DNA of 64,000 nucleotides from Candidatus Parcubacteria bacterium. GTDB lineage: Bacteria > Patescibacteriota > Minisyncoccia > UBA6257 > 2-01-FULL-56-20. Shown here one piece after another: positions 1 to 13,845 of the stretch (position 1 is the stretch's first letter; each line of letters starts with the position of its first letter). Under the pieces are notes generated by a model. It ran no database searches. It had not been told where the DNA came from and was given only the letters and a program-made list of their open reading frames with translations. The translations under genes and the position numbers were made by a program. The stretch is from contig DAHVRZ010000002.1 in the NCBI GenBank assembly GCA_027324805.1, forward strand, positions 85,658 through 149,657, written 5' to 3'.

Positions 1-74
1 CACAATCGGCGATTCTTTTATTTGCGGCGCAAAGAATCCCGCCTTCTCGACACATCCGTAATCATCACATCATC

Positions 75-641
75 ATGGAACAAATCAAAGACAATCAACA
101 CGAATCAAAACGAGAACAGAAAAGTGCCGAGCGACAACGCTCCGCAAGAAAAAGATCATTCAACAGGTCGGCGAAGCGCGCGCTGATCATCCTCTTCGTC
201 GCCGTGGGCATATGGGGGTTATGGTACTGGGGTAGCAGCAATTCCTCTCCACAGACAACCCGGGCGCTGGCATTTTCCTGCACGACCGATACGCTCACGA
301 CATTCCACATCCATCCGCATCTCGTGATCACGATCAACGGCCAGGATCAGCAGATCCCGGCGGGGATCGGCAACAGCATCACATGCCTGCACCCAATCCA
401 TACCCACGATACCAGCGGGATGATCCATGTCGAATCGCCGTCGCCCCGCGATTTCACACTCGCCGATTTCTTCGCAGTTTGGGGCAAAACATTCAATCAC
501 AATCAAATTCTCAATTCCGTAGCAGATGCGAGCCATACGATCACGATGACCGTGAACGGCGTTCCGAGCCAGGACTTCGAAGACCTTGTTTTGCGCGACA
601 AAGACCAGATCGTTATTGCCTACGGCCCGACAAAACCATAA
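75..641 (+). CDS. Membrane-anchored hypothetical protein with His-rich motifs (HIHPH, HPIHTHD)
   Basis: ORF of 188 aa with a single N-terminal TM segment and HxHxH-type motifs. It is the first gene of a + strand unit that continues into the DsbA-like gene. No family recognised. Confidence 0.5.
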   Translation: MEQIKDNQHESKREQKSAERQRSARKRSFNRSAKRALIILFVAVGIWGLWYWGSSNSSPQTTRALAFSCTTDTLTTFHIHPHLVITINGQDQQIPAGIGNSITCLHPIHTHDTSGMIHVESPSPRDFTLADFFAVWGKTFNHNQILNSVADASHTITMTVNGVPSQDFEDLVLRDKDQIVIAYGPTKP

Positions 642-664
642 AATAAATAATATTCTTCAAAACC

Positions 665-1414
665 ATGGAACATCACGACACGCACCACGATGAGGCACAA
701 GAACTTTCTCCCGCCGCTCGCCATCGGCCTATAAATGATCGTTTTCTCCCGATCTCCATTCTTGTCGCGGCAATTTTGATCGGGGGAACGATACTTTTTG
801 CAACGCTCTACCGAGGAGGCAGCGTTGCTCCTGCTGGCGCAGCCCAAGCGGCCGTCCCGCCAATAAGCGCCGCTGACGCCGTATTGGGCAACCCGAACGC
901 CCCAGTCACACTCATAGAATACGGCGATTACCAGTGCCCGTTCTGCGGGAGGTTCTTCTCGGAAGCCCAGCCGCAGATTGTGAAAGACTATGTGGATACA
1001 GGAAAGGTAAAAATGGTTTTCCGTAATTTCGCTTTTCTCGGATCGGAATCCGTTGCGGCCGCAGAAGCTGCGGATTGTGCGGGAGACCAGAATAAATTAT
1101 GGGCGTACCACGATGCGCTCTACGCCGGAAAAGTGGCCGATTTCGCGAAAGGCGGCGGCGAGGATGATGGGTTCTTTAATAGGACGTTGTTCCTGAAGAT
1201 TGCCCAGCAAATAAACCTTAACATCCCGACATTCACGAGCTGCATCGATAGCAATAAATATGCAAATCGGGTCGCACAGGAAAAAACGGACGCGGCGGCA
1301 ATCGGCGTGAATTCAACGCCAACCGTCTTTATCAACGGGCAAGAAGTGCTCGGCGCCCAGCCCTATGCGGCATTCAAAACAGTGATCGACCTTGCATTGC
1401 AAAACAGTAAATAA
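665..1414 (+). CDS. DsbA-family thiol:disulfide oxidoreductase (thioredoxin fold, CPFC active site), membrane-anchored
   Basis: The YQCPFCGRFF CxxC motif sits in a DsbA-like context after an N-terminal TM helix. The 249-aa length is typical. Confidence 0.8.
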   Translation: MEHHDTHHDEAQELSPAARHRPINDRFLPISILVAAILIGGTILFATLYRGGSVAPAGAAQAAVPPISAADAVLGNPNAPVTLIEYGDYQCPFCGRFFSEAQPQIVKDYVDTGKVKMVFRNFAFLGSESVAAAEAADCAGDQNKLWAYHDALYAGKVADFAKGGGEDDGFFNRTLFLKIAQQINLNIPTFTSCIDSNKYANRVAQEKTDAAAIGVNSTPTVFINGQEVLGAQPYAAFKTVIDLALQNSK

Positions 1415-1416
1415 CC

Positions 1417-1992
1417 ATGGATGCCGCGCAGAAAAAATCACAAATGGGCGTTTGGAAAGGATTGCGCTACGTATTTGCGAAGATCGGCTATCTCGTTATC
1501 GCATCCATCGCAGCGGCGCTTGCGTTCGCCTTCGCAGTCTGGCTGCCGAATCTTCACCTCGTTGCGAGCACGCTCACACGATCCGACGCGCCTCTTATGT
1601 TGCGGCTGCAACTCCCGGTAACCCTTCTCGGCTCCATCGTCACGAATTTTAGCCCGTTTTCGGCAACTATGATCGTTACCCTCTCCATGCTTCTTGGGAT
1701 TGATACGGCACTCGTCGCATATCACACAAAGCAAAGGCTTGCAGGGAATTTCACTGGCGGCTTTGCCGCCGGAGCGGGTGGCATAGTCGCCGGAGTTCTC
1801 GGCATCGGATGCGCCGCATGCGGCTCCATTGTCGCCATGTCGTTCCTGCCCCTCGTGGGCGGCGCGGGGATTCTTGCGGCATTGCCACTCGGAGGAGGAG
1901 AGTTTGGTGTTCTCGGGATAATCCTTCTTGGCAGTTCTATCGCTATCCTCGCAAAAAAAGCGACGCAACCGCTCATTTGCGTCGAAGCGTAG
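1417..1992 (+). CDS. Polytopic membrane protein with intramembrane CAAC (CxxC) motif; candidate redox partner of the upstream DsbA-like protein
   Basis: The 191-aa ORF has 4-5 predicted TM helices with GIGCAACGS in one helix, and starts 3 nt after the dsbA-like stop. It matches neither DsbB nor VKOR by motif pattern. Confidence 0.55.
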   Translation: MDAAQKKSQMGVWKGLRYVFAKIGYLVIASIAAALAFAFAVWLPNLHLVASTLTRSDAPLMLRLQLPVTLLGSIVTNFSPFSATMIVTLSMLLGIDTALVAYHTKQRLAGNFTGGFAAGAGGIVAGVLGIGCAACGSIVAMSFLPLVGGAGILAALPLGGGEFGVLGIILLGSSIAILAKKATQPLICVEA

Positions 1993-2011
1993 ATGCGTAG
2001 ATGCCGCTCAA

Positions 2012-2401
2012 TTATGAAATGACCGTATCAACAACCCTTTTGAGCTTGTCTTCCACCGTGCTCGCAATATCGCCGAGCGCAGGATTATCCACCATACCCA
2101 TCGCAACCGTCGGCAGGATGGCGGACACGAACACGTTTCCTTTTTCCTCATAGACGACCACATTGCACGGAAGAAGTAAACCGATATCCTTCTCCGCCTG
2201 TAACGCCTTGAACGCGAACTGCGGATTGCACGCACCGAGTATGACGTAATTGTCGTACTCGACGTCCAATTTCTTTTTGAGCGTCGCTTTGACGTCGATT
2301 TCCGTTAATACGCCGAACCCTTCCCTCGCCAATGCATCCTTGGTCTTTTGAACCGCCTCGCCGAAGGAGATGGGGTATCGTTTTTTATAGCCGTAATTCA
2401 T
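2012..2401 (-). CDS. DUF302 family protein
   Basis: Reading from the internal start MNYGYKKRYPISFGEAV gives about 130 aa, typical for DUF302. The track's longer N-terminal extension runs into promoter sequence. Confidence 0.7.
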   Translation of the reverse strand: MNYGYKKRYPISFGEAVQKTKDALAREGFGVLTEIDVKATLKKKLDVEYDNYVILGACNPQFAFKALQAEKDIGLLLPCNVVVYEEKGNVFVSAILPTVAMGMVDNPALGDIASTVEDKLKRVVDTVIS

Positions 2402-2440
2402 GATTACATTATACCCCCTGTGGGTATTTCTGCAAAGCAG
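2402..2440 (-). promoter_or_regulatory. Sigma70-like promoter (TTGCAG-N16-TATAAT) with CsoR-type palindrome ATACCC-CCTGT-GGGTAT (2411..2427) overlapping the spacer and -10; near-leaderless start of DUF302 gene
   Basis: The minus-strand sequence reads TTTGCAGAAATACCCACAGGGGGTATAATGTAATC-ATG. The palindrome has the same arms as the two csoR-region operators. The -10 lies 6 nt from the ATG. Confidence 0.55.
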
Positions 2441-2453
2441 CCCGCAGAGCATA

Positions 2454-3752
2454 TCAGCTACTTATCACCACTCTCGCTACGCTATAAATCTCTTTCAGCG
2501 AATAGTGGGATGTAAAACTGATATTGTTCCCGTTCGCTACATAGGGATCTTGCATGAGATAATTGCCTTTACTCCCGCTCGTGAGGACGACGAAGTGCGT
2601 TCCGCCGAGGGCGTTCATGCCGATAATTATCGGGTGGCCAGCGGCAAGCATCGCGTCAATGACGGTGATCTTGCGCGCGGTGGTCGCTCCCCTCACGCTC
2701 GTGGCTTTCCGCGTGACGGTGACGCCATCCACGCCGATCGTCGCGAGTAGCAAGTCGGGAGAATACGCGGCAAAATTATCCGGGTCCGCATTGATGGTTG
2801 CGGGTGTCACATCCTTATATCCGTAATGCGTGAGCACCATCGCCACAGACGCGATAAGACAACCGGCGCTTGCAAGGGTATATTTCGTTCCATCGAGTGC
2901 ATTGCTCCCCCACGCCGTATCGCGCTGATTATAGTAACAGCCCGATGCGTCGCAGCTCGTTTGGTTCGCGAGCAGCTTTGAACCACCGGCATTCTGGGTG
3001 AAGGTCGAGAAGCTGTTGAGCTCCGCCTGCGCCGCCGCGAGCAGTTTCTGATATGTTGATTCCTGTGATTTTGTTTCTACAAGCAGCTGGCTTTTTGATT
3101 GCTCCGTCACGGCGAGTGATTGTTGTTGCGATGCTAGTGTCTGTTTTTGAAATGTCAGCGTTTCCTGTTTTTGCTTTGATGCAGCCTGTGAATCGGCAAG
3201 GTCGCCTTCCTGCACGCGCAACGTCTGCATTTGATCCTGAACAGCATTCTGCATCTTCAACGTCGCGTTGACGTCATTCCACATCGCAACAAGACTGCCT
3301 GATGAAAGCATCTGCACGATAAGTGGTTTGTCATCAGCTTTCTGAAGGCTTCGCAGATATCCTCCGAGCGCTGCCTGATCCGTATCGATCGTTTGCTTCG
3401 CCATAGTTATCGCCCCGCCCAATTGCTGGATTTGCGCCTGGGTGGTATTGATCTGCAACTGGGTAAGGGCGACCTGCGCCTGCACCTTACTACGCTCAAG
3501 ATCGAGCGCATTAATGGCGGCTTGGAGCGTCTTCTTGTCCGCACCGACTTTCTGAAGCTGCGCCTGGTATGTCGCGATCTCTTGATTAAGAGCGGCAATT
3601 TGCTGATTGTCCGTGCTAATCTGTTGCGCCTGCGTGGAAGTACTGCTCGTACTCGTTGCAGAGGCGATTGCCGCCGCATGGGAAATAGAAATACCCCACA
3701 CGGCTACGGCCATGAGAAATCCAAACCAAATAAAAAGAGATGGCCCACGCAT
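2454..3752 (-). CDS. Secreted coiled-coil protein with C-terminal papain-like C39-type (Peptidase_C39_2-like) cysteine peptidase domain; PcsB-like architecture
   Basis: Signal peptide, then about 250 aa of Q/A/L-rich coiled coil. The C-terminal domain carries SAGCLIASVAMVLTHYGY (catalytic Cys context) and GGTHFVVL (His). Confidence 0.65.
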   Translation of the reverse strand: MRGPSLFIWFGFLMAVAVWGISISHAAAIASATSTSSTSTQAQQISTDNQQIAALNQEIATYQAQLQKVGADKKTLQAAINALDLERSKVQAQVALTQLQINTTQAQIQQLGGAITMAKQTIDTDQAALGGYLRSLQKADDKPLIVQMLSSGSLVAMWNDVNATLKMQNAVQDQMQTLRVQEGDLADSQAASKQKQETLTFQKQTLASQQQSLAVTEQSKSQLLVETKSQESTYQKLLAAAQAELNSFSTFTQNAGGSKLLANQTSCDASGCYYNQRDTAWGSNALDGTKYTLASAGCLIASVAMVLTHYGYKDVTPATINADPDNFAAYSPDLLLATIGVDGVTVTRKATSVRGATTARKITVIDAMLAAGHPIIIGMNALGGTHFVVLTSGSKGNYLMQDPYVANGNNISFTSHYSLKEIYSVARVVISS

Positions 3753-3764
3753 GTTTGTTAACCG

Positions 3765-3941
3765 TTAGCAGCATCCGCCACCTTTTGATTTACGAGGTTG
3801 CTCTTTCTTAGTTAACAGCAGCCGATATTGATCCTTGCATCTCTCGGAATAGAATTGCTTGCCAAATCCTTTTGGATATTCTTGTCCATCTTTGAACTCC
3901 ATCCTGCAGATGGGACACTTTTTCTTGAAAATTTTGAACAT
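3765..3941 (-). CDS. Small Lys-rich zinc-ribbon-like protein (58 aa) ending in GGGCC
   Basis: This is the internal-ATG ORF MFKIFKKKCPICRMEF...GGGCC*. It is AT-rich with atypical codon usage and is wedged between the ICMT-like and PcsB-like genes. Weak support. Confidence 0.3.
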   Translation of the reverse strand: MFKIFKKKCPICRMEFKDGQEYPKGFGKQFYSERCKDQYRLLLTKKEQPRKSKGGGCC

Positions 3942-3955
3942 GTGTTTTTGATATT

Positions 3956-4490
3956 TTATTTCACTGATTTGTCTTTTCGCCTCCACCGCGGAATGAACGC
4001 GGGCGTTTGCGCCGCATAAGCATCCCATTCTCTGCCAAATGCCGCTTGCGCTTCCCTCTCTTCGGTTCGCGCGAGATGCACGTACATCCACAAAAGCACC
4101 GGAAACATGGCAAGCGTGAGAATGGTCGGCCACTGGAACAAGAATCCGAGCATAACGAGTATGAATGCCACGTATTGTGGATGGCGAATGCGGGCATACG
4201 GCCCTGCGGTTGCAAGCGTATGTTCTTTCTGCGCTTTATAGAGGACAGTCCATGCGTCCATTAAGAGGAATATCCCTATGCCGATCAGGATGTAGCTCAG
4301 AATATGGAACGGCCCGAAGTGTGAGCGGAAAACCATACATCTCAGTGAATAACGCGACGATGAATGCGGAGAATGCGCCGAACGATCGCCAATCGCGCGG
4401 CGTCTTCGGTTTTGTGAAGCTGAACGCGAACACGATGAAGATTGCGGAATTGATGATGACGAGCGGCCAGAGGCCATAACTGTTGTCCAT
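3956..4490 (-). pseudogene. Isoprenylcysteine carboxyl methyltransferase (ICMT)/phospholipid methyltransferase family gene split by a frameshift near 4311..4320
   Basis: The N-terminal part is ORF 4236..4490 (WRSFGAFSAFIVALFTEMYGFPLT). The C-terminal part is in another frame within 3956..4501 (GPYARIRHPQYVAFILVMLGFLF, the ICMT signature). The two frames share the DNA around ggcccg at 4311..4316. This is either a real pseudogene or a one-base sequencing indel. Confidence 0.6.
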
Positions 4491-4491
4491 A

Positions 4492-4815
4492 TCAGTGACA
4501 AGAGGAATGATCGTGTTTCATATCATGATGAGTTTCGGCCTTTGAGGATTGCTCATCGTCCGTAATGTGATTATCGTGCAGTACCTCATTGTGCGGCGGT
4601 TTCCGATGCCGCATCATCATGATGACGCACGCCACGAGAAGCACGAAAGCTATGAGCGGTAGGAATAATGCTGCTCCGCCGAACGCCGCGACACCGCCGC
4701 CCAAAAATAGGATGGCGAGAATCGGCACGGCGCAACAGGCGACCATCATCCACATCATTGAGGAGCCGTGGCCACCCTCATGATTGTGGTCACTATTGTT
4801 ACTTTGGTTGTCCAT
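4492..4815 (-). CDS. His-rich small membrane protein (2 TM), possible metal-binding
   Basis: The N-terminus is SDHNHEGGHGS and the C-terminus is HHDMKHDHSSCH, with hydrophobic helices between. The gene sits 1 nt upstream of the ICMT-like gene. Confidence 0.55.
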   Translation of the reverse strand: MDNQSNNSDHNHEGGHGSSMMWMMVACCAVPILAILFLGGGVAAFGGAALFLPLIAFVLLVACVIMMMRHRKPPHNEVLHDNHITDDEQSSKAETHHDMKHDHSSCH

Positions 4816-4847
4816 AGTTTAGTTTGATTAATTTCTTTACCAGACTT

Positions 4848-5321
4848 TTACTGCATGTTCCACGTGAACGTCCTCACTGCTACCCCACCGACGTTGCTTA
4901 CCGTGAGCGTTATCGTCTTTGGCGTCGACGATGGCGCAGGGAACGTAAGCGTGCCGTTGCGATGATGCCCACCTACAGCAGGGCCATCCCATGCGATGGA
5001 TGCAAGTGAGTCGCCACGATCATCGGTCAGTACGGCAACTTTCGTCATATCCATATCGAGACTGCCCATGTGGGTATCGATCCCAAAGTTGAACGTCCAC
5101 GTGCTTGTGCCGGGCGCGAGCGGCTGTGCGATGACTTCCGCCGTACCCTCGGAATTGGTCTGTGATTCGTAAGGCGACGATGCCGTGCCGGGTGCCTGCT
5201 GCGTTTGGCTTGCCGCTCCTCCATATTCCGTAGGCGTGCCCCTCGGTACGCTCAAAGCGTAGAGAAAAAACATCCCGGCAAGGACGGCAAGCCCAATAAG
5301 AGCGATGTTGATTTTCTTCAT
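4848..5321 (-). CDS. Secreted hypothetical protein with Met/His-rich patch (THMGSLDMDM, GGHH)
   Basis: Signal peptide at MKKINIALIGLAVLAGMFF. The motifs loosely resemble CopC-like Met-rich Cu(I) sites, but this is not diagnostic. Confidence 0.5.
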   Translation of the reverse strand: MKKINIALIGLAVLAGMFFLYALSVPRGTPTEYGGAASQTQQAPGTASSPYESQTNSEGTAEVIAQPLAPGTSTWTFNFGIDTHMGSLDMDMTKVAVLTDDRGDSLASIAWDGPAVGGHHRNGTLTFPAPSSTPKTITLTVSNVGGVAVRTFTWNMQ

Positions 5322-5761
5322 ATTGTGCGATGTTTGAATTTCATGATCCGACTGATCATATATGCGATGCCCACGAGGTTGAACGCGATCCCGACCCAGA
5401 AAAGCTGTACTTGGTATGCCCCAATGAATGACGCGAACGCACTCACCCCGAGAACCGGCAAGATGTTCACGAGATAATGGGCGCAGCAGGAGATCATCGC
5501 GCCCGTGGACGTTGTTCCTGTCACGGCAAGCATTTTCCCGCTCGGATCCTTGGTGTGAATCTCGGCCTTCAGATAGCTGTACAACCCGATCTGGATGCCA
5601 AACCCAACCGCGAGACTTCCGAGATAGTACCAGTAACTTGAGAACTGGCTCGCGGCAAATCCAACGCCGGAGATGAGACCGACGACCAGGAAATATGCGC
5701 CGACCAAAGCTAGCGTTGCGGCTGCTCCCTTCGCGATCGATGTGATGACGGTGCGGTTCAT
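5318..5761 (-). CDS. 4-TM membrane protein with CCAHY motif
   Basis: ORF of 147 aa that overlaps the downstream gene by 4 nt. No family recognised. Confidence 0.5.
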   Translation of the reverse strand: MNRTVITSIAKGAAATLALVGAYFLVVGLISGVGFAASQFSSYWYYLGSLAVGFGIQIGLYSYLKAEIHTKDPSGKMLAVTGTTSTGAMISCCAHYLVNILPVLGVSAFASFIGAYQVQLFWVGIAFNLVGIAYMISRIMKFKHRTI

Positions 5762-5762
5762 G

Positions 5763-6389
5763 TTAATTCATCTGCGCGAGTTCGCCCGCGATCTTGTCGT
5801 TGTCGATACCCATGTTTGGGTCGTCGAAGACATAGCGGACGATGCCCTGCTTGTCGATAAGGACGAACGTGTGGCCCGGGTACGAACCGTAATGCATGGA
5901 TGAGTTAACGGTAAGCATGCCGTACTCGTTCGATACGCTTTTGTCTGTGTCAAAGAGTACGGTTGCCGAGGCGAGCTGTGGCATCTTCTGGATCGCGCTT
6001 TGCCAATCCGACGGCTGATCGATCACCACCGAAAGCGCGACGGTATTCGAGCTATTGAGCTGCGGGAGTGCCACCATCTGATTCCAGCACGCCGGGTAGC
6101 ACATGATACCTTCGTTGAAGAACAGCACCACATCTTCCCCCTTCAGACTGTCATTCGTGTACGTCGTGCCGTTCCGGTCTTGAAGCGAGAATTGCGGGGC
6201 TGGTTTGCCGACGAGGTCGTTAGGCGATCCCACCGAAGCGGCTGCGCTCCCCGAATGCATGGGGTCGCCGCCCGCCTGTGGACTGCCGCTTCCGCGACTC
6301 AGCATGTAGATGCCGCCGATAACGAATGCCGCGATAGCGATGATCGCCACAATGGCGGTCACATTAGATTTTTTCTGATAGTTTTTCAT
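5763..6389 (-). CDS. TlpA/ResA-like thiol-disulfide oxidoreductase (redoxin, thioredoxin fold), membrane-anchored
   Basis: The VGKPAPQFSLQDRNG...VVLFFNEGIMCYPACWNQ motif places a CxxxC-type redox site in an AhpC/TSA-redoxin context. The start was moved to the internal MKNYQKK. Confidence 0.75.
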   Translation of the reverse strand: MKNYQKKSNVTAIVAIIAIAAFVIGGIYMLSRGSGSPQAGGDPMHSGSAAASVGSPNDLVGKPAPQFSLQDRNGTTYTNDSLKGEDVVLFFNEGIMCYPACWNQMVALPQLNSSNTVALSVVIDQPSDWQSAIQKMPQLASATVLFDTDKSVSNEYGMLTVNSSMHYGSYPGHTFVLIDKQGIVRYVFDDPNMGIDNDKIAGELAQMN

Positions 6390-6396
6390 GTTGGTT

Positions 6397-7257
6397 TTAT
6401 TTTTCTTTGTTTTGTTTAATTGCCATGGCCGTAAACCAGGCGAGAAGCCCAACGATCACAATCGCCCACACGAACTGCGGCACCCAGCCGATGAAGCGGT
6501 TGAGCGATTGCAAAATTTGCGTAATGAAGATGTCGACATCCACGGCCGTTGCCGAGTATCCCATCGGATTGTTCGCTGCCCATATGAGCGTGAAGGCACC
6601 CATGATGGTGAAGGTAGCTCCCGCTAAGAGGTCAGAGATCCGCGTCTTGAATTCCTTTCCAAACAGGGTGAACGTAAACGGCTTCCGCGCTTCGAAGAGG
6701 CGGTTCGTGAGTTTTGTGCGATCAATGATGGACGCCAAAATGAAGAGTGGCGTCACCATGCCGAGGACGTAGGCCAAGGTGTAGACGATGCCCCATGCGA
6801 AAGAACCCGGAAGCACGGAGAGCGCGAGCGCTCCAGCAAGAACAGGGGCGCAACAGGTCGTCGCGATGCCGGAGAATATGCCGAGGACGTAGACCGATGC
6901 CGCTGTTTCCTTCTCTTTCACTTCAAACTTAGGCTTCCACGATGACGGCATAGGTAATCGCTTCCCGAAAAAAAGTGAGATGCCCAGAGCGAGAAGCAAC
7001 AGACCTACAACCGTAAAGATCTCGTGGTGATAATGCCCGAAGAACGTGCTCAAGGACGAGAATCCCAGCCCGAGCGGCAAGAATATGGTCAGGATGCCGA
7101 GGAAGAAGATAAACGTCATGAGAAATACCTTCCGCCGCGTCTCAAAGATTGAGCCGAAATAGGAGGGCAGAAGAACGGTCACGCAGCAGGGCGCAAAAAG
7201 GGCAGCGATTCCCGCCACGAATGCCGCTATGAGTGATGTGCTGATGAGGAGTTCCAT
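6397..7257 (-). CDS. ccdA: CcdA/DsbD-family transmembrane thiol-disulfide electron transporter
   Basis: Polytopic membrane protein with FAPCCVTVLLP and TTCCAPVLAGAL motifs, the DsbD_2/CcdA-like Cys-in-TM pattern. It is adjacent to the redoxin gene. Confidence 0.7.
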   Translation of the reverse strand: MELLISTSLIAAFVAGIAALFAPCCVTVLLPSYFGSIFETRRKVFLMTFIFFLGILTIFLPLGLGFSSLSTFFGHYHHEIFTVVGLLLLALGISLFFGKRLPMPSSWKPKFEVKEKETAASVYVLGIFSGIATTCCAPVLAGALALSVLPGSFAWGIVYTLAYVLGMVTPLFILASIIDRTKLTNRLFEARKPFTFTLFGKEFKTRISDLLAGATFTIMGAFTLIWAANNPMGYSATAVDVDIFITQILQSLNRFIGWVPQFVWAIVIVGLLAWFTAMAIKQNKEK

Positions 7258-7262
7258 GGTCG

Positions 7263-7463
7263 TTATTGCAACCCACAACCGCTAGGCTGACCGTAGGATG
7301 GGGCTTGGTTTTGCGCTTGCGACGATGGCGCGGCAATCTGATTTTCCTGGGTTACCGCGTTAGCACCGAATGGCCGGAACGCATAGGCCCACGCCGTACC
7401 GACGATGATCACGAAGAGCGCACTACTGATGAACAGCCAGAAATTGTCATTGGTTGGTTTCAT
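7263..7463 (-). CDS. Small membrane-anchored protein ending in C-terminal ...SGCGLQ
   Basis: ORF of 66 aa with an N-terminal TM and a Q/A/S-rich tail. The C-terminal motif is shared with the upstream gene. Confidence 0.45.
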   Translation of the reverse strand: MKPTNDNFWLFISSALFVIIVGTAWAYAFRPFGANAVTQENQIAAPSSQAQNQAPSYGQPSGCGLQ

Positions 7464-7478
7464 GTTTTTTATTTCCGG

Positions 7479-8474
7479 TCATTGCACCCCGCAGCCGCCC
7501 GACGATTGCGTCTGCACCGGAGTGATTTTGTTTTCTATCTGCTGATACCCTTGCGCACTCGAATACGCGGCGCCGAGGACCGCCTTCGGATCCACCGCAC
7601 TCCAGTCTATGCCCTGGCTTTGGAAGTAGGTCGCGAGGGTCATATAGGTATCCGGGAACCAGTAGGAATTCACCGCGAGCGCGGCTTTATACATGTCCGT
7701 TTCCGAGACGCCCTGCGACGCCATGAGCTCGAGGAGGGCGAGCATTGCCATGCCGTGATTGCAGTCCGGGAAGTACGTAGAGTTGCCGCAACACGGGCGA
7801 TAGATATTCTGTGCAACGCGAACGACGAGCGCCTGCTGATCGGCCGTGAGCGTTATGAATTGATGTGCGCTATAGTGCGTCATCGCATCGCCGACCGAAA
7901 GCGTCCATCCGCCAGTCGAAGCAAAGTTCTTCGCGCTGCCGTATTGCGGATTTTGCATCGGACCGCTTGTGAGGATCGGATTGTTATTCCCAAGCCCAAG
8001 CGCCCATAGAAGATTCAGGATGACGCCGGAATTCTGTGGCGTGATGACGAGATCGCTGTTGTCCGTATTATCGAGAAGCGCTTGCATGTCGGGCGACAAC
8101 CCGCCACGCCGTGCGTACAATGCCTCAAATTGCGGCTCGTCGATTACGCCGCTGGAAACCAACTGCTTCCCCAGGTCGCCCCAACGTGCGGGCAACGTCA
8201 CGCCCACCGCCGGGATCACTTTTTCCTGAAGCGCAGAAACTGACGCGGTTTGCGTGGTCGTGGCCGAGGATCCTTTCGCCGAAAAAAGATTCTGACCTCC
8301 TGTTGATCTCTGGCTGCCGACATAAACGAACGCCGAAGCGATAAACAGTGCGGCAGCGAGAATACTAAGCGGCAAAAATAGATCTTTCCGGCCATCTTTT
8401 ACCGCTCCTTCCGGGAGAATATCTTCCGCCGGTTCCGATTCGTGATGATGTGGTTCGTGTTCCATATGATTCAT
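7479..8474 (-). CDS. Membrane-anchored His/Cys-rich protein (N-term HEPHHHE; RPCCGNSTYFPDCNHG) ending in ...SGGCGVQ
   Basis: ORF of 331 aa with a single TM. No family recognised; C-terminal Cys-x-x-x motif. Confidence 0.55.
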   Translation of the reverse strand: MNHMEHEPHHHESEPAEDILPEGAVKDGRKDLFLPLSILAAALFIASAFVYVGSQRSTGGQNLFSAKGSSATTTQTASVSALQEKVIPAVGVTLPARWGDLGKQLVSSGVIDEPQFEALYARRGGLSPDMQALLDNTDNSDLVITPQNSGVILNLLWALGLGNNNPILTSGPMQNPQYGSAKNFASTGGWTLSVGDAMTHYSAHQFITLTADQQALVVRVAQNIYRPCCGNSTYFPDCNHGMAMLALLELMASQGVSETDMYKAALAVNSYWFPDTYMTLATYFQSQGIDWSAVDPKAVLGAAYSSAQGYQQIENKITPVQTQSSGGCGVQ

Positions 8475-8477
8475 GCG

Positions 8478-8969
8478 TTATTCGTCGCAGCACGCGGCGA
8501 GTTTATTGACAAGCTCTTCGAATTGCGAGCTGCCTCTTGCTTCGTCTTTTATTTTCCGACCCGTAACTAGTTTCAATTTCAGCGCCCAAAAGATTGAATA
8601 TACCTTGTAGGCACCCTCAAATGTCTGCTTCGCACGCTGCTTCTCGCCTTCCGACTGCAACTTATTGCCAACCTCGATAAGGCGCATAGTCGTCGCAAGG
8701 AGGTGTTTTGCGATACACCACGTCTCGCCTTCATTTTCCGGCATCAACTGCGCGAGAAATTGTTTGCGTAACTCCCTGATCTCCTGCGCCGTATCGAAAT
8801 ACTCGTCTTTTTTTGTTTTTACACCGGTAAAAACAAAGTGTTCTTCGAGGCTCACGAGATTCATGACGGCAATGCTCAGATCTTCCGTCGTTGAAAGATC
8901 GACGCCCGCTTTCGCCTTGACCGATTCTATTCTTTTGAGGAACTCTTCCAGTGTTGGTTTTGTATTCAT
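8478..8969 (-). CDS. Hypothetical soluble protein (163 aa) ending AACCDE
   Basis: ORF in the tight minus-strand gene string, with no TM. Function unknown. Confidence 0.5.
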   Translation of the reverse strand: MNTKPTLEEFLKRIESVKAKAGVDLSTTEDLSIAVMNLVSLEEHFVFTGVKTKKDEYFDTAQEIRELRKQFLAQLMPENEGETWCIAKHLLATTMRLIEVGNKLQSEGEKQRAKQTFEGAYKVYSIFWALKLKLVTGRKIKDEARGSSQFEELVNKLAACCDE

Positions 8970-9054
8970 GGTAGTTTAATGGAATGATTGCGCACCAAAA
9001 AACCGCATTCCTGCGGTTTATGGCGCTACGAACGACACGGCGAATCTGGTTCGC

Positions 9055-9468
9055 TTAGGCGTTCATAGCGCAAAATAACGACGGATCACGCTTTTCAAGG
9101 AGAGATATCCAGCGATGCTGTTTACGGATGCCGTTCGCCTTCCCTTCGGTAACGATACCCAACCGGCGTTGTGTTATAAATGGCAGATCTGCGACGACAG
9201 AGACTGTAAGCCACGCGAAAACTGCCAATAAAGCCAAAAATGTAAAAGCTAATGAACTTACAATGCCGAGCGATGCCCCAAGGAGCGCGTTGATATGTAT
9301 TGTCGCGAATTGGAATGGGTTCATGCCGTTCACGCATTGCTGGCTCCCGGGAATCGCCGCGAGGCAATTCGCATGATTGCCCGCTCCCATATTGGCCATC
9401 GCAAAGCCGCCCGCCACGAGGGCAAGGACGGCTGTTAGGATGACCATGGTTGCGAGCGCCGATTTCAT
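9055..9468 (-). CDS. Membrane protein with extracytoplasmic Cys pair (HANCLAAIPGSQQC)
   Basis: ORF of 137 aa with a signal/TM segment and an internal TM. It lies directly downstream of csoR. Confidence 0.5.
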   Translation of the reverse strand: MKSALATMVILTAVLALVAGGFAMANMGAGNHANCLAAIPGSQQCVNGMNPFQFATIHINALLGASLGIVSSLAFTFLALLAVFAWLTVSVVADLPFITQRRLGIVTEGKANGIRKQHRWISLLEKRDPSLFCAMNA

Positions 9469-9469
9469 G

Positions 9470-9739
9470 CTATCTTCGTTGTGATAATTTATACACTTTC
9501 AAGATCTCGTCAGCGGCCTTTTTACCATGTCCTGCTTTCATCTGCATCGCTACGTGGGTAGCAAGATGATTCTCAAGGAGCAAGCCCTCAATGCCGGAAA
9601 GCGCCTGCTTGATAGCGGACGACTGCGTAATAACGTCAATACAGTACTTTTCCTCATCGATCATCTTTTCCAGGCCCTTGATCTGGCCTTTTACGATCTG
9701 TAATCGCCGCAGGGCTTTTTTCTTAATAACCTTATTCAT
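9470..9739 (-). CDS. csoR: CsoR/RcnR/FrmR-family (DUF156) metal-sensing transcriptional repressor
   Basis: ALRRLQIVKGQIKGLEKMIDEEKYCIDVITQSSAIKQALSGIEGLLLENHLATHV is a very close match to the family helix bundle. The sensory positions read Y-C ... H-x3-H. The start was placed at the internal MNKVIKKK, giving 89 aa. Confidence 0.8.
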   Translation of the reverse strand: MNKVIKKKALRRLQIVKGQIKGLEKMIDEEKYCIDVITQSSAIKQALSGIEGLLLENHLATHVAMQMKAGHGKKAADEILKVYKLSQRR

Positions 9740-9745
9740 ATCTTC

Positions 9746-9774
9746 ATGATACCCCTCTAGGGTATAAGTGTCAA
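9746..9774 (-). promoter_or_regulatory. Promoter of csoR operon: TTGACA-N17-TATCAT with operator palindrome ATACCC-CTCTA-GGGTAT (about 9749..9765) in the spacer; csoR ATG 6 nt after -10 (leaderless)
   Basis: The minus-strand sequence reads TTGACACTTATACCCTAGAGGGGTATCATGAAGAT-ATG. Coordinates are +/-1 nt. Confidence 0.6.
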
Positions 9775-9800
9775 ATAAACCATCCATAATGATATCCATT

Positions 9801-9813
9801 CCCTATGGTAGGG
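9801..9813. promoter_or_regulatory. Short palindrome CCCTA-TGG-TAGGG between the divergent promoters
   Basis: Seen directly in the intergenic sequence. Possibly an additional half-operator. Confidence 0.3.
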
Positions 9814-9841
9814 TTGACAACATACCCCTGCGGGGTATCAT
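9814..9841 (+). promoter_or_regulatory. Promoter of gene 9905..10246: TTGACA-N16-TATCAT with operator palindrome ATACCCC-TGC-GGGGTAT (9822..9838) in the spacer
   Basis: The sequence reads gggTTGACAacATACCCCTGCGGGGTATCATgg. It is divergent from and architecturally identical to the csoR promoter. Confidence 0.6.
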
Positions 9842-9904
9842 GGAGAGGTAAACGTATTGTGGATACATCAATAATAAAGGTCGTCAACGCAAAAGCAATT
9901 CATT

Positions 9905-10246
9905 ATGGAAGAACATACGCACGAATACGGTCATCACATATTGCTTCGCTGGGTACTCGGCATTCTTATTTTGGTCGTGGTCTTTTGGATGGGCGTCCAA
10001 GTGGGCGAGTTCAGAACCGCCTTCGGATACAGCTACGGAATGTGGCCGGGCATGATGGGGAATAATTACTACGGTGCCACTCCTTATCCTTATGGCTATC
10101 CGATGATGGGAGGATATTATTATGGAGGCCAGACTGCGGGTCCGTCCCAATCTACGACAACCACCGCGCCGACTTACTATTACGGCCCTGGCGGTATGAT
10201 GCAGGGGTATTATCAGAACGCACCACAAACGACCAGCGCAAAGTAG
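9905..10246 (+). CDS. Small membrane protein with His-rich N-terminus (EEHTHEYGHH) and Gly/Tyr/Met/Pro-rich low-complexity C-terminal tail
   Basis: ORF of 113 aa with one TM. The tail reads YGMWPGMMGNNYYG...YPMMGGYYYGG...GGMMQGYY. It is transcribed divergently from csoR from an operator-bearing promoter. Confidence 0.55.
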   Translation: MEEHTHEYGHHILLRWVLGILILVVVFWMGVQVGEFRTAFGYSYGMWPGMMGNNYYGATPYPYGYPMMGGYYYGGQTAGPSQSTTTTAPTYYYGPGGMMQGYYQNAPQTTSAK

Positions 10247-10315
10247 CCAGCGATAAAAGAAACCGTACCGGACATTTTATCCGATACCCGCTATGCTTAT
10301 ATCTGGGCGGCAAGC

Positions 10316-10344
10316 AAAAATCCCGCGATGAGCGGGCATTTTTG
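10316..10344. terminator. Bidirectional Rho-independent terminator (A5-TCCCGCGATGAGCGGGCA-T5)
   Basis: A hairpin at 10322..10336 is flanked by A- and T-tracts. It lies between the convergent genes 9905..10246 (+) and 10354..10581 (-). Confidence 0.55.
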
Positions 10345-10353
10345 TTCCTAATT

Positions 10354-10569
10354 TTATTCAATTCCCATCTTATCCAAGATGTGCGCCTCGATTTGGCGTA
10401 TCCGTTCCCTCGTAACTCCGAACGCCCTGCCGGTCTCTTCAAGGGTTCTCGATCGTCCGTCCGCAATGCCGAACCGCAACTCGAAAATCTGCATCTCCCG
10501 CGGGGTTAATTTCAGGACCTTCTTCATAGCCTTATATCGTTCAATGACGGCATCACGATCCCGTTTCAT
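10354..10569 (-). CDS. Stand-alone sigma-70 region 4 (HTH) domain protein, ~71 aa
   Basis: [48 protein letters not shown] is a classic sigma region 4.2 HTH. No regions 2 or 3 are present. A TATAAT at 10580..10585 overlaps the first ATG, so the mRNA is probably leaderless and starts at the second ATG (MKRDRD). Confidence 0.6.
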
Positions 10570-10597
10570 ATTGTTTATCATTATAGATTTATTTTAA

Positions 10598-10648
10598 AAA
10601 TTGGCTACTTTCTAACTACATCCAATAGCATCCGAAAGTAGCCAATTT
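10598..10648 (-). terminator. 15-bp perfect inverted repeat AAATTGGCTACTTTC / GAAAGTAGCCAATTT (21-nt spacer) overlapping the dcm stop codon, followed by T-run; terminator or protein-binding site
   Basis: Seen directly in the sequence. The large loop is atypical for an intrinsic terminator. Confidence 0.35.
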
Positions 10649-11636
10649 ATCCGCCAACGTCCCGTATCGCTCTCATCACTTCCGCCGCCACCTGCGGCAC
10701 AATGGCATTGCCCAAGGCTTTGATTCGCTCTACTCGGTGCTGTTTTACGGTGAGCTCGCATCCGTCCAGCCGGGCGGGAAGCCCATCATCCACTCGACAA
10801 AGATCGGTTGCAGCTTCAAGCCAGTCCGACCCTGCACCACCTCGCCAAAATTTGATTTTCCCCGGTCCGTATAGGAAGCCCTGCTGTCCTGCGCTTTGGG
10901 CGTAGGCAGGATTTCGTAGAGCCGCGGCAATATTTGCCCGAGCCGCGCGCCGTGCCGATCGCCAGTCCTCTTTGACTGCCGGAAAAATTGTCCGTTCCCG
11001 TAATGAACGGTCTTCGTGTATTCCGCGCCAACAACCTCGCTTGCGACCGGCGTGGGAAGCATCGTGGGCAACGATCCAGACCCGATCCCTCCGGTGCGGG
11101 GCTTCGACGGCACAAGCTGGAATAACAAACGATTGGACTTCGTAGTTTTGATCTTCCAGGTCAGATAGCACTTGGTCGAGCGCCAGGTTGATGATGCCAG
11201 CAACGTTCTCGCCAATGATCCAATGGGGCCGCGTTTCTTTGATAACTCTGAGCATTTCAGGCCAGAGATAACGGTCATCCAGTTTGCCTCGGCGCTTTCC
11301 GGCGAAACTGAAAGGCTGGCAAGGAAAGCCACCCGTGAGGAGGTCAAGTTGATAGCCTGCGGCAAGTTTATGCTGTGCTTGCTCCCCTTTTTCATTTGAG
11401 AGCTTTTGAGATTCGGTGTGAAGCTGTCCGACGCTGTGGGCGTCGGCAACAAGTCGTTCGATTGATAACTCCCTGATGTCATTGTAGATTTTCGCATGTT
11501 TGAAATTCTTTTTTATTATTGCTTGGCAGAATTTGTTGTTATCACAGAATCCGACGTTCTCATACTTGTCGCCCCACACCCATTGCGCGGCGAGTGCAAA
11601 TCCGCCGATGCCGGAAAAAAGATCGAGGTGTTTCAT
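10647..11636 (-). CDS. dcm: DNA (cytosine-5)-methyltransferase
   Basis: C5-MTase motifs are present: DLFSGIGG (I), GGFPCQPFS (IV), ENV (VI) and LGNAIVPQV (X). The 329-aa length is typical. No restriction endonuclease or Vsr gene is nearby. Confidence 0.85.
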   Translation of the reverse strand: MKHLDLFSGIGGFALAAQWVWGDKYENVGFCDNNKFCQAIIKKNFKHAKIYNDIRELSIERLVADAHSVGQLHTESQKLSNEKGEQAQHKLAAGYQLDLLTGGFPCQPFSFAGKRRGKLDDRYLWPEMLRVIKETRPHWIIGENVAGIINLALDQVLSDLEDQNYEVQSFVIPACAVEAPHRRDRVWIVAHDASHAGRKRGCWRGIHEDRSLRERTIFPAVKEDWRSARRAARANIAAALRNPAYAQSAGQQGFLYGPGKIKFWRGGAGSDWLEAATDLCRVDDGLPARLDGCELTVKQHRVERIKALGNAIVPQVAAEVMRAIRDVGG

Positions 11637-11637
11637 G

Positions 11638-11901
11638 TCATGTGATGCCCGGGATCTTGCTGTAGACCCACCGCACGACTTTGTAGCTGAAATAGCCCGC
11701 TTCGATCACGAGCACGATCCCGAACGTGATAAACAGCTCCGGTATGGGCAGAAAGATGTCGAACAGCGCGAGGTAGTTCCCCGCCTGCGTAAGTGTACCC
11801 GCGAGATTGACGGAAAGCGTCGCCACGGGCAATAGCGTGAGCGGGGCCGTGATGAGCTGGATGAGATATATGAAAATCTGTAGAAGCCAGTAGATGATCA
11901 T
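11638..11901 (-). CDS. Small polytopic membrane protein (87 aa)
   Basis: Hydrophobic ORF that overlaps the upstream gene by 4 nt (ATGA-type coupling). Confidence 0.45.
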   Translation of the reverse strand: MIIYWLLQIFIYLIQLITAPLTLLPVATLSVNLAGTLTQAGNYLALFDIFLPIPELFITFGIVLVIEAGYFSYKVVRWVYSKIPGIT

Positions 11902-13226
11902 AGCGTGATGTGTTGCACGAAGCGCAATATCCAGAATCCAAGCATGAGGATCAGCATGAAGGATATTCCTGCCCTCAGCGGATCGAGCACCGACGAAAAG
12001 GCGGCGTAGGTGGTCGTACTCATGAGCGTGCTCGTGTTTGTACCTTCCTGAAAGTCCTGGAACGCCGTAATAATGATCTTCGCGTAGCCGAACGGTATCC
12101 GGTTGCCGAGATTGCCCCAGATTCCGTTGAAGGAATCAAAAAGGGCCGCCTGCTCCGACGTGTTCGGAATAAAGAGATTGCACCCTGCTTGTTCGAGATT
12201 GCCCACCGGATCATTAAGGAAGGTCGAGGTGGTGAATTGGCAGTTTGCGGGCGTCGAGGACGTTTCCCCGCCGCCGAAATTGAACATGCCATTAGGAAAT
12301 GGCGCAAAGGCGGGCGCGTTGTTGCTGATCGTGAAGCTGATGACCGACCCCGTGATGTCGAAATTCGTCGAGGTGTTCGCCACTTCGAGATCGGCGTACC
12401 ACACGCTCGAACTCGGCCCCTGCGGAGTGAGGAATTGGTAGGTTTGTGGAATCTTGAGCTCGGTGTCCGTGCCGGGCGGAAGATCGGTGTAGGTGGTCGA
12501 TGCGGCGAGCGTAAGGTTGCCCGGACCCGTGCCGAAGTGGACGGTTACGACCCCGCTCTGAGTGCTCGTCGAATTGTTCGAGAGATAAAAATCCCAATTC
12601 GGGAATTGCCCGATCACCGCGCCATCGAAAGGCTGGAGGAACACAGGCTGCACGAGTTCCTGGATGGAGTTCACGTAGAAGATCTGCCAGTAGGTGCTGC
12701 CGTCGGTCGGCAATGATTCTCCCACGCCACAGGTATAGCCGTTGTAATAGAAAAAAGTGAGATAGATCGGCGTCGCCTGGGTAATGCTCAAAGTCGGCAC
12801 GAATGAATTGGAATTGGCATTCCATACCGTGCTCATCGGGCCGTACGTGTTGCCGTACGGCGCCTGGCTCGCTCCCGCATAGCTGCTGCCGAAACCGCCC
12901 GCGCATCCGCCGCCCGTACCCACACCGCCATGCGTGAGGACGTGCCCGCCGGCCGACCATCCGGCATACGGGCCGTTGTAACTGAGCTCCGGATCGGTGC
13001 TTGTCCCATTGATCGAGACCATGATGCCACCGGGCAGGTCGTACCCGCCGAAGCCGAGCTGCACCTTGTGCCAGTCGATCACGAGGTTGCCGTTCTGGTC
13101 GAGGTAGATCGAATCGGGCTGGACGTAGGTCGAGGGCGCCGTGATGCTGAACGCGAGCGCGTCATGCGACGAGAATATGAAAATGCCGAGGAGCGCGGCG
13201 AGGCCGACAAAAATATATTTCTTCAT
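11898..13226 (-). CDS. Secreted Gly/Thr/Asn-rich 442-aa protein with signal peptide and C-terminal TM anchor (type I membrane protein)
   Basis: Signal peptide at MKKYIFVGLAALLGIFIFSSHDALA and a beta-rich low-complexity ectodomain with scattered Cys. The C-terminus is AGISFMLILMLGFWILRFV. No family recognised. Confidence 0.6.
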   Translation of the reverse strand: MKKYIFVGLAALLGIFIFSSHDALAFSITAPSTYVQPDSIYLDQNGNLVIDWHKVQLGFGGYDLPGGIMVSINGTSTDPELSYNGPYAGWSAGGHVLTHGGVGTGGGCAGGFGSSYAGASQAPYGNTYGPMSTVWNANSNSFVPTLSITQATPIYLTFFYYNGYTCGVGESLPTDGSTYWQIFYVNSIQELVQPVFLQPFDGAVIGQFPNWDFYLSNNSTSTQSGVVTVHFGTGPGNLTLAASTTYTDLPPGTDTELKIPQTYQFLTPQGPSSSVWYADLEVANTSTNFDITGSVISFTISNNAPAFAPFPNGMFNFGGGETSSTPANCQFTTSTFLNDPVGNLEQAGCNLFIPNTSEQAALFDSFNGIWGNLGNRIPFGYAKIIITAFQDFQEGTNTSTLMSTTTYAAFSSVLDPLRAGISFMLILMLGFWILRFVQHITL

Positions 13227-13254
13227 GGTGGTGGGCGGGGAAATTCCATGTTTG

Positions 13255-13506
13255 TTATTGCCCGCGGTGGCGGATCGCGCTGATCACGAATTCGACGACG
13301 ACGAGCGCGAGAAGGACGCCGATGATGAGCGACATGTACCCCTCAAGGCTCGTGAGAAGCGCGGTCGCTTGGGCGAGAATGTCGCCCGTGAGGTTGGACG
13401 GAAGCACGATGGTGTCGCTCGCCGTTTGCGCAAAAACGAAAGCAGGCGCAAAAAAGGCCAGCGAAACCAGCGATGAAACTGTGATAAATATTTTCTTCAT
13501 GCGCAT
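13255..13506 (-). CDS. VirB2/TrbC-like pilin-type small protein (signal peptide + C-terminal hydrophobic segment), paralog 1
   Basis: The 83-aa ORF MKKIFITVSSLVSLAFFAPAFVFAQTASD...MSLIIGVLLALVVVEFVISAI has type-IV-secretion pilin-like topology. The call rests on topology only. Confidence 0.45.
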   Translation of the reverse strand: MRMKKIFITVSSLVSLAFFAPAFVFAQTASDTIVLPSNLTGDILAQATALLTSLEGYMSLIIGVLLALVVVEFVISAIRHRGQ

Positions 13507-13572
13507 ACGTGAAGGGACGCCTCACTGCATCCCCTCGCCTATGGGCTCTAGGTAGGGCGGCAAAACCGATAC

Positions 13573-13845
13573 CTAGTGAGCGCGGGCTCGCGACTTCGGC
13601 AACAAGCCGATGACCTGCTTCGCGAAGTAGAACACGAGCGGGATCGCTGCGGCGACCACGACGAGGCCTAAAATGCCCTGATCCGTGAAGATGTTGGACA
13701 CCGAGGCCAGGAGGTCCGTAACCGTCGAGGACGGCACCGTCAACGCTCCCGCCGGGATCGACTGCGCGTGCGCGGCCGCGACGGCAACGATGCCGAGGAT
13801 GGTAGCGCCTGCGCCAGAAACCCACATGGAAATTTTCTTGACCAT
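13573..13845 (-). CDS. VirB2/TrbC-like pilin-type small protein, paralog 2
   Basis: MVKKISMWVSGAGATILGIVAVAAAHAQS...TDQGILGLVVVAAAIPLVFYFAKQVIGLL. The track's ORF begins at a TTG codon 19 codons upstream, and the ATG start at MVKK is preferred here. Confidence 0.45.
   Translation of the reverse strand: MVKKISMWVSGAGATILGIVAVAAAHAQSIPAGALTVPSSTVTDLLASVSNIFTDQGILGLVVVAAAIPLVFYFAKQVIGLLPKSRARAH

Follow-up and report, generated by a model that had tools for sequence, protein, structure and literature searches.

The DNA analysed here, referred to throughout as the window, is a stretch of 64,000 nucleotides (nt) from the ultra-small Candidatus Parcubacteria bacterium (contig DAHVRZ010000002.1). 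The subject of this study is a small gene cassette at its start, in which a gene for a DsbA-like thiol oxidoreductase is followed directly by one for a polytopic membrane protein of 191 amino acids (aa), for which no described family was found. Both open reading frames (ORFs) are as the initial annotation of this DNA had described them, with the first product harbouring a CPFC active site and matching Pfam Thioredoxin_4 (E 7e-37), and the second bearing the motif GIGCAACGS. The spacer between them, previously given as 3 nt, is in fact 2 nt, with the stop codon of the DsbA-like gene ending at position 1414 and the ATG of the membrane protein gene starting at 1417; this is also the commonest spacing in related loci. 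Upstream, on the same strand and 23 nt from the DsbA-like ORF, lies the ORF for a 188-aa protein with the histidine motifs FHIHPH and HPIHTHD, again as first reported (coordinates of all features are collected in Table 1). A scan for promoters and terminators was uninformative, returning counts no different from shuffle expectation. In Parcubacteria group bacterium 21-58-10, all three proteins carry the NCBI label 'hypothetical protein'.

The 191-aa protein contains exactly three cysteines, C132, C135 and C188. It has no match in Pfam or NCBIfam, and no Pfam family, including DsbB, VKOR, MauE, DsbD_TM, MerC and MerT, is matched consistently across 146 diverse relatives, which upholds the earlier view that it is neither DsbB nor VKOR; hidden Markov model (HMM) searches, proposed at that time as a check, matched it to no characterised family. 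A word-indexed search recovered 472 relatives, none of which contains a Pfam domain, and an exhaustive profile search returned 1601 clusters (50 % identity) at E<1e-3, with 987 at E<1e-10. Seven divergent members at E≤1 likewise have no consistent Pfam match, and a profile search of the PDB with the family found nothing. As judged from these searches, the membrane protein is a member of a large unannotated family, new to the databases queried. Its members are almost all 175–200 aa in length, and the clusters derive mostly from Patescibacteria. When one genome per GTDB species was scanned, 213 species gave matches, the best 80 of which are nearly all Patescibacteria, together with a few Beta- and Gammaproteobacteria metagenome-assembled genomes (MAGs), one Bdellovibrionales MAG and one 'archaeon'.

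Alignment of the 146 relatives (approximately 33 % mean identity) reveals that C132, C135 and P157 are present in every sequence, E162 in 145, G131 and G136 in 144, C188 in 141 and N45 in 133. The conservation of C188 runs counter to the initial annotation, in which the two residues of the Cys-x-x-Cys (CxxC) motif were the only conserved cysteines. Across 269 sequences the motif is CAAC in 211, CASC in 31 and CSAC in 10, with the rest rarer. Its loss in relatives, a possibility considered previously, does not occur, as the one sequence of the 269 lacking it is a truncated fragment ending inside the motif. More divergent members, encoded beside DsbA-like genes in metagenomes, display CPAC, CPSC, CVSC or CTFC and do not possess the N-terminal WLPN and TNF motifs; all of them keep the CxxC and the C-terminal cysteine, and every one except that with CTFC, the most divergent, also retains 'LPFxGxE'. 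A long variant (P0212) appears chimeric and was ignored.

An AlphaFold2 model of the 191-aa protein, generated from a deep alignment (predicted local distance difference test, pLDDT, 86.6; predicted template modelling score, pTM, 0.78), has the CAAC ending a helix of residues 116–135, with two short helices (137–147 and 150–155) thereafter, and in this model the segment 136–156 looks kinked or re-entrant. Foldseek comparison of the model with the PDB returned no fold match (best E-value 1.5). Positive charge is unevenly distributed along the family, with mean Lys+Arg counts of 2.7 at the N-terminus, 3.7 in the loop 102–115, 1.8 in the ten positions before C188 (including Lys180–Lys181) and 0.8 after it; segment 45–59 and loop 157–161 are charge-poor (≤0.7), and helix 60–79 averages 1.4. 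In one lineage (P0231) an S-adenosylmethionine (SAM) methyltransferase is fused C-terminally past C188. This fusion recurs on 12 contigs and is thus taken as real, ruling out an artefact; the added domain is of the class-I SAM type, contains zero cysteines and displays no specific likeness to metal(loid) methyltransferases. Other C-terminal extensions within the family are rich in Arg and Lys. The fused protein belongs to an ArsR/SmtB-regulated version of the cassette (locus L170, 4126–7146), which encodes, in order, ArsR, a protein with a weak DUF302 match and a glutaredoxin domain, a YgaP-like transmembrane (TM) protein, the DsbA-like protein and the membrane protein–methyltransferase fusion. 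From these data we infer that both termini are cytoplasmic and that the chain crosses the membrane four times, with an additional short segment that is kinked or re-entrant; the CxxC would occupy the outer half of helix 116–135, or its outer end. C188 is placed in the cytoplasm on account of the charge distribution and the recurrent C-terminal methyltransferase fusion.

The 249-aa DsbA-like protein consists of an N-terminal TM anchor followed by a DsbA-type domain, and scores well above the Pfam cut-offs for both Thioredoxin_4 (127.6 bits; cut-off 23.2) and DSBA (E 4e-15; 56.6 bits; cut-off 25.6). Alongside CPFC it possesses a cis-Pro loop (G-T218-P219), a GAQP motif and a second conserved cysteine pair (C138/C193). 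The nearest named NCBIfam model, Rcas_1661 thioredoxin-like (seleno)lipoprotein, gives 152.3 bits, below its cut-off of 190. The closest solved relatives of the DsbA-like protein are BdbD of B. subtilis (3eu3, E 2.8e-20), an actinobacterial DsbA (4pwp) and S. aureus DsbA (3bci), with solved ScsC and DsbG matching at only about 1e-5 (2e-5 to 2e-4 for ScsC). Amongst the cassette-linked homologues, 70 of 74 display CPFC; they share an invariant Thr–cis-Pro together with GAQP and the second cysteine pair, and in the alignment CPFC and T218–P219 are invariant.

No ScsC_N domain was detected by Pfam in the window protein, which has the TM anchor instead. The situation is different in two high-GC relatives (L166 and L168), where the upstream partner belongs to the same clade and shares the catalytic core (SDFECPFCK ... 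GKVAWVYRHFPLD ... GAQPY), but begins with a signal peptide rather than a TM anchor and matches the Pfam trimerisation domain ScsC_N (E 6.6e-9); L168 additionally harbours a divergent gene for a DsbD_TM plus thioredoxin protein beside the ScsC-like gene. ScsC proteins that form trimers act as disulfide isomerases in copper resistance and bind Cu(I) (PMC8900818; review PMC10907172). The ScsC_N domain is typical of reduced, isomerase-type enzymes. As for other features of ScsC systems, the window protein has the copper context, and the window encodes no ScsB, only a short DsbD_TM protein.

With regard to the linkage of the two genes, a strict call amongst the 85 closest loci finds a DsbA-like gene directly upstream of the membrane gene, on the same strand, in 68. 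ORFs were called naively with respect to start positions, and seven of the nine loci scored as having the DsbA-like gene elsewhere are artefacts in which it overlaps the membrane ORF through its naive start. In the other two, the DsbA-like gene is approximately 460 nt upstream (L036) or the nearest one is directly downstream (L053). Four further loci have no room for such a gene, one (L079) has it directly downstream and three are without it, one of these through masked sequence. Once corrected, a CPFC-bearing DsbA-like gene stands directly upstream in approximately 75 of the 81 loci with room, and the conservation of gene neighbourhood called for by the initial annotation is therefore confirmed. 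The loci were picked by similarity to the query, and so these proportions describe close relatives; distant family members in L054, L061, L172 and L173 have no DsbA-like neighbour. The pairing is, nonetheless, far beyond chance.

In the reverse direction, the 80 metagenome loci most similar to the window DsbA-like gene nearly all encode CPFC, and have the membrane gene directly downstream in 12 cases and elsewhere in three, whilst it is absent from 54 with room. An obligate reciprocal pairing is thus rejected, as 54 of 69 close CPFC DsbA-like genes with room are without the membrane partner; the genes downstream of these are varied, with thioredoxin reductase, glutaredoxin-like proteins and a copper ATPase among them. 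Given this one-sided linkage, the membrane protein looks like an accessory for a special condition. In 9–11 loci a separate DsbB and a second DsbA are encoded in the same gene string, in several operons right after the cassette, and the active site of this second DsbA is CEAC in the two loci whose sequences were read (L053 and L079). It is apparent, therefore, that two parallel systems coexist in these operons, a pattern that complementary systems would give. The 64-kb window itself encodes neither DsbB nor a further DsbA-like protein.

The third member of the cassette, the 188-aa protein, has no Pfam, PDB or named homologue that could be found. Within its family, conservation is at least 97 % for H78, H80, H109, H111 and H118 and 90 % for E120, and the cysteines are not conserved. 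A homologue is present in 39 of the 85 loci, mostly directly downstream of the membrane gene. At the same position, three loci (L050 4584–5789, L059 4573–5766 and L078 2493–3686) encode a single protein in which a TM anchor and a further DsbA-like domain (CEAC or CEVC; Thioredoxin_4 E 2e-25) are joined to the His-rich domain, indicating that the latter is functionally tied to DsbA-fold proteins. Clustering of every ORF in the 4 kb on either side of 80 non-redundant loci brought out two further unannotated families. A two-TM protein with a 'CC' loop is encoded directly upstream of the DsbA-like gene in 39 loci, and in 27 the membrane gene is directly followed by one for a Cys-rich surface protein (PCCCKCWRW). 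The latter, absent from the window, is approximately 195 aa long (SCC..., PCCCKCWRWYVYGG, C-terminal DGCGG; e.g. L009 2171–2764 and L061 4576–5154), and might bind Cu(I) as thiolate or be a client rich in disulfides.

The same ±4 kb neighbourhoods are rich in copper genes, with 32 of the 80 containing a copper-type P1B ATPase, 18 CsoR, 16 a multicopper oxidase, 11 DUF305, eight a cupredoxin and seven HMA-DsbD_2. At least one of these copper-type genes is found in 51 of the 80 loci, and in 32 of the 44 with full flanks; DsbB (nine loci) and DsbD_TM (six) were counted separately and do not enter these totals.

Comparison with established membrane thiol proteins yields no homologue. DsbB (PF02600), a protein of four TM helices with a CxxC in the first periplasmic loop and another Cys pair in the second, has no HMM match in the window protein or the 146 relatives, no cysteine is conserved in any outside loop across these sequences, and a profile of DsbB from the same loci gives a probability of 0.2 % by hhalign. 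The same value is obtained with the DsbD_TM family of the window itself, and on these profiles of genes from the same loci homology to either protein is rejected; nor is there a Pfam or Foldseek match to DsbD_TM/CcdA (PF02683, PF13386). VKOR (PF07884) is a four-helix bundle in which a loop cysteine pair accompanies a CxxC at the start of TM4; searches by Pfam, PDB sequence and fold all failed to match it, and the present family lacks the loop pair. MauE (PF07291), compared by Pfam HMM and motif, is matched by none of the 146 members, and its CXC occurs in the loop between TM3 and TM4, whereas the CxxC of the present family is inside a helix. MerC (PF03203), with four TM helices, CAAC in TM1 and a cytoplasmic Cys pair at its C-terminus, has no Pfam or NCBIfam match; hhalign, against a shallow MerC alignment (at least 71 % identity), covers only the nine columns of the GxGCAAC motif at a probability of 10 %. 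As the motif is all that aligns, homology to MerC is rejected, save perhaps for a very remote kinship that so shallow an alignment would miss, and a functional analogy retained. A literature search found, among the papers covered, none joining DsbA, disulfide and 'Candidate Phyla Radiation', and in a second search, on DsbA and Patescibacteria, DsbA was absent among the matches listed; none of the papers covered treats the envelope thiol chemistry of these bacteria.

The reading we tentatively prefer, with a probability of roughly 0.4, is that the membrane protein acts as a transmembrane cysteine relay, feeding electrons to the DsbA/ScsC-like enzyme under copper stress. The two proteins, with the His-rich protein, would then be the central part of an envelope module for copper stress, which seems widespread in Patescibacteria and occasionally transferred to Proteobacteria. 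The CxxC, placed in the third membrane helix towards its outer end, would be reachable by the CPFC domain and the invariant C188 would face the cytoplasm. There, a thioredoxin or glutaredoxin might donate electrons to C188, from which C132/C135 and lastly CPFC would receive them. Kept reduced in this manner, the DsbA-like enzyme would undo wrong disulfides formed by copper catalysis, or hold Cu(I). In essence, a non-homologous protein would take the role that ScsB, DsbD or CcdA has for ScsC, DsbC or ResA. These pairs resemble the cassette in that an extracytoplasmic thioredoxin-fold protein is encoded beside a membrane protein with cysteines in the bilayer; with ScsB/ScsC there is also a shared copper-stress setting, a partner whose relatives carry ScsC_N and a separate DsbA–DsbB oxidative pair alongside. 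A reductive direction is favoured because the ScsC-type partner and the coexisting DsbB–DsbA pairs point to a reductive or isomerase arm, because an accessory of copper islands fits the repair of copper-catalysed mis-oxidation, and because reduction would need a membrane conduit, whereas oxidation can presumably occur spontaneously in oxidising, copper-rich surroundings.

A number of observations weigh against this relay. The likeness to known reductant systems does not extend to sequence, profile or fold, at least for DsbD_TM and CcdA; CcdA is built from two repeats of three helices with one cysteine per repeat, whereas the present family has approximately four spans, no internal repeat, a CxxC and one cytoplasmic cysteine. 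DsbD and CcdA need no cytoplasmic cysteine as a point of electron entry, and a lone cysteine in that compartment would be an unusual one. A reductant may, moreover, already be available, as a CcdA-like protein is encoded beside a Redoxin in the window and in some related loci, and L168 has its DsbD_TM plus thioredoxin gene next to the ScsC-like gene. The DsbA-like protein has a catalytic domain that most resembles those of oxidases (BdbD, MdbA-type DsbA and S. aureus DsbA), being nearer to BdbD than to ScsC. The methyltransferase fusion and the His- and Cys-rich neighbours suit electrons no better than a small thiophilic cargo. Finally, the topology rests upon charge bias and one fusion, and the supposed contact of the two proteins, the way in which the flow runs and the identity of what is carried are likewise inferred.

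The strongest rival is that the cassette is a conduit for a thiophilic metal. Here CPFC would capture Cu(I) or another soft metal outside the cell and pass it to the CxxC, with Asn45 and Glu162 nearby, and thence to the cytoplasmic C188; flow could also be outward, loading secreted copper proteins. In mercury uptake the metal moves from MerP via MerT or MerC to MerA, past three cysteine stations. By analogy, the cassette would be a copper counterpart of MerP–MerT assembled from unrelated parts, with a DsbA-fold protein as the outside metallochaperone, an idea we regard as possible but rather unlikely. Several parallels argue for it: cysteines at the same three stations (CxxC of the outside partner, intramembrane pair and cytoplasm), a GxGCAAC sequence identical to the TM1 motif of MerC, conserved polar residues (N45 and E162) in or near the membrane, and genes that sit in metal-resistance islands under metalloregulators, here CsoR or ArsR with copper genes as neighbours. 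In addition, His- and Cys-rich surface proteins adjoin the cassette, with the His-rich domain fused to a DsbA-like domain in L050, L059 and L078, one lineage bears a cytoplasmic methyltransferase on the tail, and ScsC proteins bind Cu(I) very tightly (PMC8900818). The resemblance to Mer has clear boundaries, however, as the CxxC is in the third helix rather than the first, the outside partner has a DsbA fold rather than an HMA fold, the neighbours are copper genes and not merA or merR, and both the MerC alignment, confined as it is to nine residues, and the Pfam searches for MerC and MerT speak against kinship. The DsbA-like protein also retains every catalytic feature of a redox enzyme, including the cis-Pro loop, the fused methyltransferase is free of cysteines and lacks any specific similarity to those acting on metal(loid)s, and the import of copper during copper stress wants a rationale.

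The initial annotation had instead raised the prospect of an undescribed class of DsbA partner, with a role in re-oxidation. That the family is undescribed and a near-obligate genomic partner of a DsbA-like gene stands; the re-oxidant role does not find support, and we consider it improbable. As formulated here, the CxxC would oxidise CPFC and deliver electrons to a quinone or other acceptor, making this a fourth, non-homologous class after DsbB, VKOR and MauE. It shares with these a small, approximately four-helix build and a cysteine motif near the outer face, beside a DsbA-like gene, and the tight, probably translationally coupled operon is as in bdbDC or VKOR–DsbA. The DsbA-like domain is nearest to known oxidases, no DsbB is encoded in the 64-kb window, and the four TM helices, the motif near the outer end of the third and the invariant Glu recall MauE (bioRxiv 10.64898/2026.03.05.709764). 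MauE, which the same preprint reports to replace DsbB in E. coli, has four TM helices and one CXC but lacks a second cysteine pair. As MauE works with a single CXC, the missing second cysteine pair is no argument against an oxidant, and the earlier reasoning from that absence is weak. Other evidence is less accommodating, as an invariant cytoplasmic cysteine, of which a DsbB-type oxidant has no need, would go unexplained, canonical DsbB–DsbA pairs occur in the same gene strings, and the setting is copper islands and not housekeeping genes. Furthermore, the partner in some relatives bears ScsC_N, most close CPFC DsbA-like proteins are without the membrane protein, Pfam similarity to DsbB, VKOR and MauE is lacking, as is similarity to solved DsbB and VKOR folds, and the hosts, Patescibacteria, are reported to be without electron-transport chains (PMC7507113). 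Least probable of all is that the membrane protein relays nothing, and is a client or an unrelated neighbour. It might depend on the DsbA-like enzyme for the state of its own cysteines, act as a sensor or anchor for the module, or be an accessory like ScsA. Such a role would accord with the one-sided linkage, in which the membrane protein needs the DsbA-like gene and not the reverse, and with the distant members that have no DsbA-like neighbour. It also has a precedent in Salmonella ScsA, a membrane CX2C protein of the copper-induced scs operon, which encodes DsbA-like proteins, for which no redox role is known and whose CX2C is predicted to be membrane-buried (PMC10907172). ScsA, likened here by description and not by sequence, differs in having two predicted helices, an N-terminal CX2C and a lipobox. 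Against such a passive role, a cysteine pair within a membrane helix would seem a poor substrate for DsbA, and a CxxC, cytoplasmic Cys, Pro and Glu that stay invariant over more than 1000 clusters are what a site of catalysis or transport would be expected to show.

Returning to the window, the cassette lies at its left end, in a copper/thiol island (Table 1). The convergent DUF302 gene and the peptidase-domain protein come next, the latter sitting between the cassette and the remainder of the island. The gene for the 107-aa His-tailed protein overlaps that of the ICMT/PEMT-like methyltransferase by 10 nt, and an ICMT/PEMT-like gene is likewise present at the edge of the related locus L166. 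The second thiol module encodes, in transcription order, a 331-aa protein with a Cys motif, the CcdA-like DsbD_TM protein, a Redoxin (CYPAC) and a 147-aa four-TM protein, an order repeated in a 'Saccharibacteria' MAG (L003 7782–10558). Neither the 331-aa protein, which carries 'PCCGNSTYFPDCNHG', nor the 147-aa protein, which has 'SCC' in its third TM helix, has a Pfam match. The build of the latter resembles that of the 191-aa family, with two TM helices, a positive loop and a cysteine pair in TM3, a likeness of layout. The 137-aa protein encoded after CsoR is a weak member of the two-TM family whose gene stands directly before that of the DsbA-like protein in 39 loci of the 80. In 2-kb windows, the proportion of guanine plus cytosine (GC) is 0.49–0.58 across the first 16 kb (0.49–0.55 in seven of eight, with 0.58 at 12–14 kb) and 0.55–0.62 beyond. 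On the basis of this lower GC, the region 1–16000, including the C5 DNA methylase gene, looks like a horizontally acquired island; no tRNA gene was found within the first 20 kb.

Table 1. Features of the window discussed in the text, with positions numbered from its first nucleotide
Feature	Position	Strand	Basis or remark
Membrane-anchored protein with extracytoplasmic His-rich domain (HxHP ... PxHTHD..G..HxE), 188 aa	75–641	+	Third module member
DsbA/ScsC-like thiol oxidoreductase, 249 aa, membrane-anchored	665–1414	+	Pfam and PDB matches
CPFC active-site codons of DsbA-like protein	935–946	+	Read from sequence
Polytopic membrane protein, undescribed family, 191 aa	1417–1992	+	GIGCAACGS; no family match
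CAAC (C132, C135), end of third hydrophobic helix	1810–1821	+	146/146 conserved
C188, third invariant Cys, in short tail past Lys180–Lys181 after last helix	1978–1980	+	141/146
DUF302 protein, convergent with cassette	2012–2452	-	Pfam DUF302 E 2e-25
432-aa secreted protein, long Gln-rich coiled coil, C-terminal papain-like C39/C70 peptidase domain	2454–3752	-	
ICMT/PEMT-like membrane methyltransferase	3956–4501	-	
107-aa membrane protein, His-rich N- and C-terminal tails (HNHEGGH ... HHDMKHDH)	4492–4815	-	
Second thiol module of island	5318–8474	-	Pfam DsbD_TM E 9.5e-13, AhpC-TSA/Redoxin E 5e-15
Redoxin and four-TM protein with Cys pair	5318–6452	-	
CcdA-like DsbD_TM protein (APCC / TCCAP)	6397–7278	-	
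137-aa two-TM protein, Cys-bearing outer loop, after CsoR	9055–9468	-	Family match E 8.6e-6
CsoR-family metal-sensing repressor	9470–9799	-	Pfam Trns_repr_metal E 8e-23
C5 DNA methylase	10647–11636		Within low-GC island
RpoB–RpoC fusion, single ORF, 2250 aa	17163–23915	-	Pfam Rpb2 domains 21–1043, Rpb1 domains 1055–2172

Extracytoplasmic thioredoxin-fold enzymes depend on a membrane protein that links them either to an oxidant or to a cytoplasmic reductant. To our knowledge few such connectors have been described, namely DsbB, VKOR and DsbD/CcdA/ScsB, with MauE added by a preprint of 2026. The present family, of at least 1600 clusters at 50 % identity, is unannotated, stands nearly always directly after a DsbA/ScsC-like gene and is concentrated in the Patescibacteria, bacteria with tiny genomes. 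Whilst the family itself is new, systems that pair a thioredoxin-fold enzyme with a membrane thiol partner for defence against copper are already known. Should the relay reading prove true, the family would represent a different structural solution for a cysteine-based passage of electrons, or of copper, through a membrane, and four or five 'hypothetical' gene families of a common copper-defence island would gain names.

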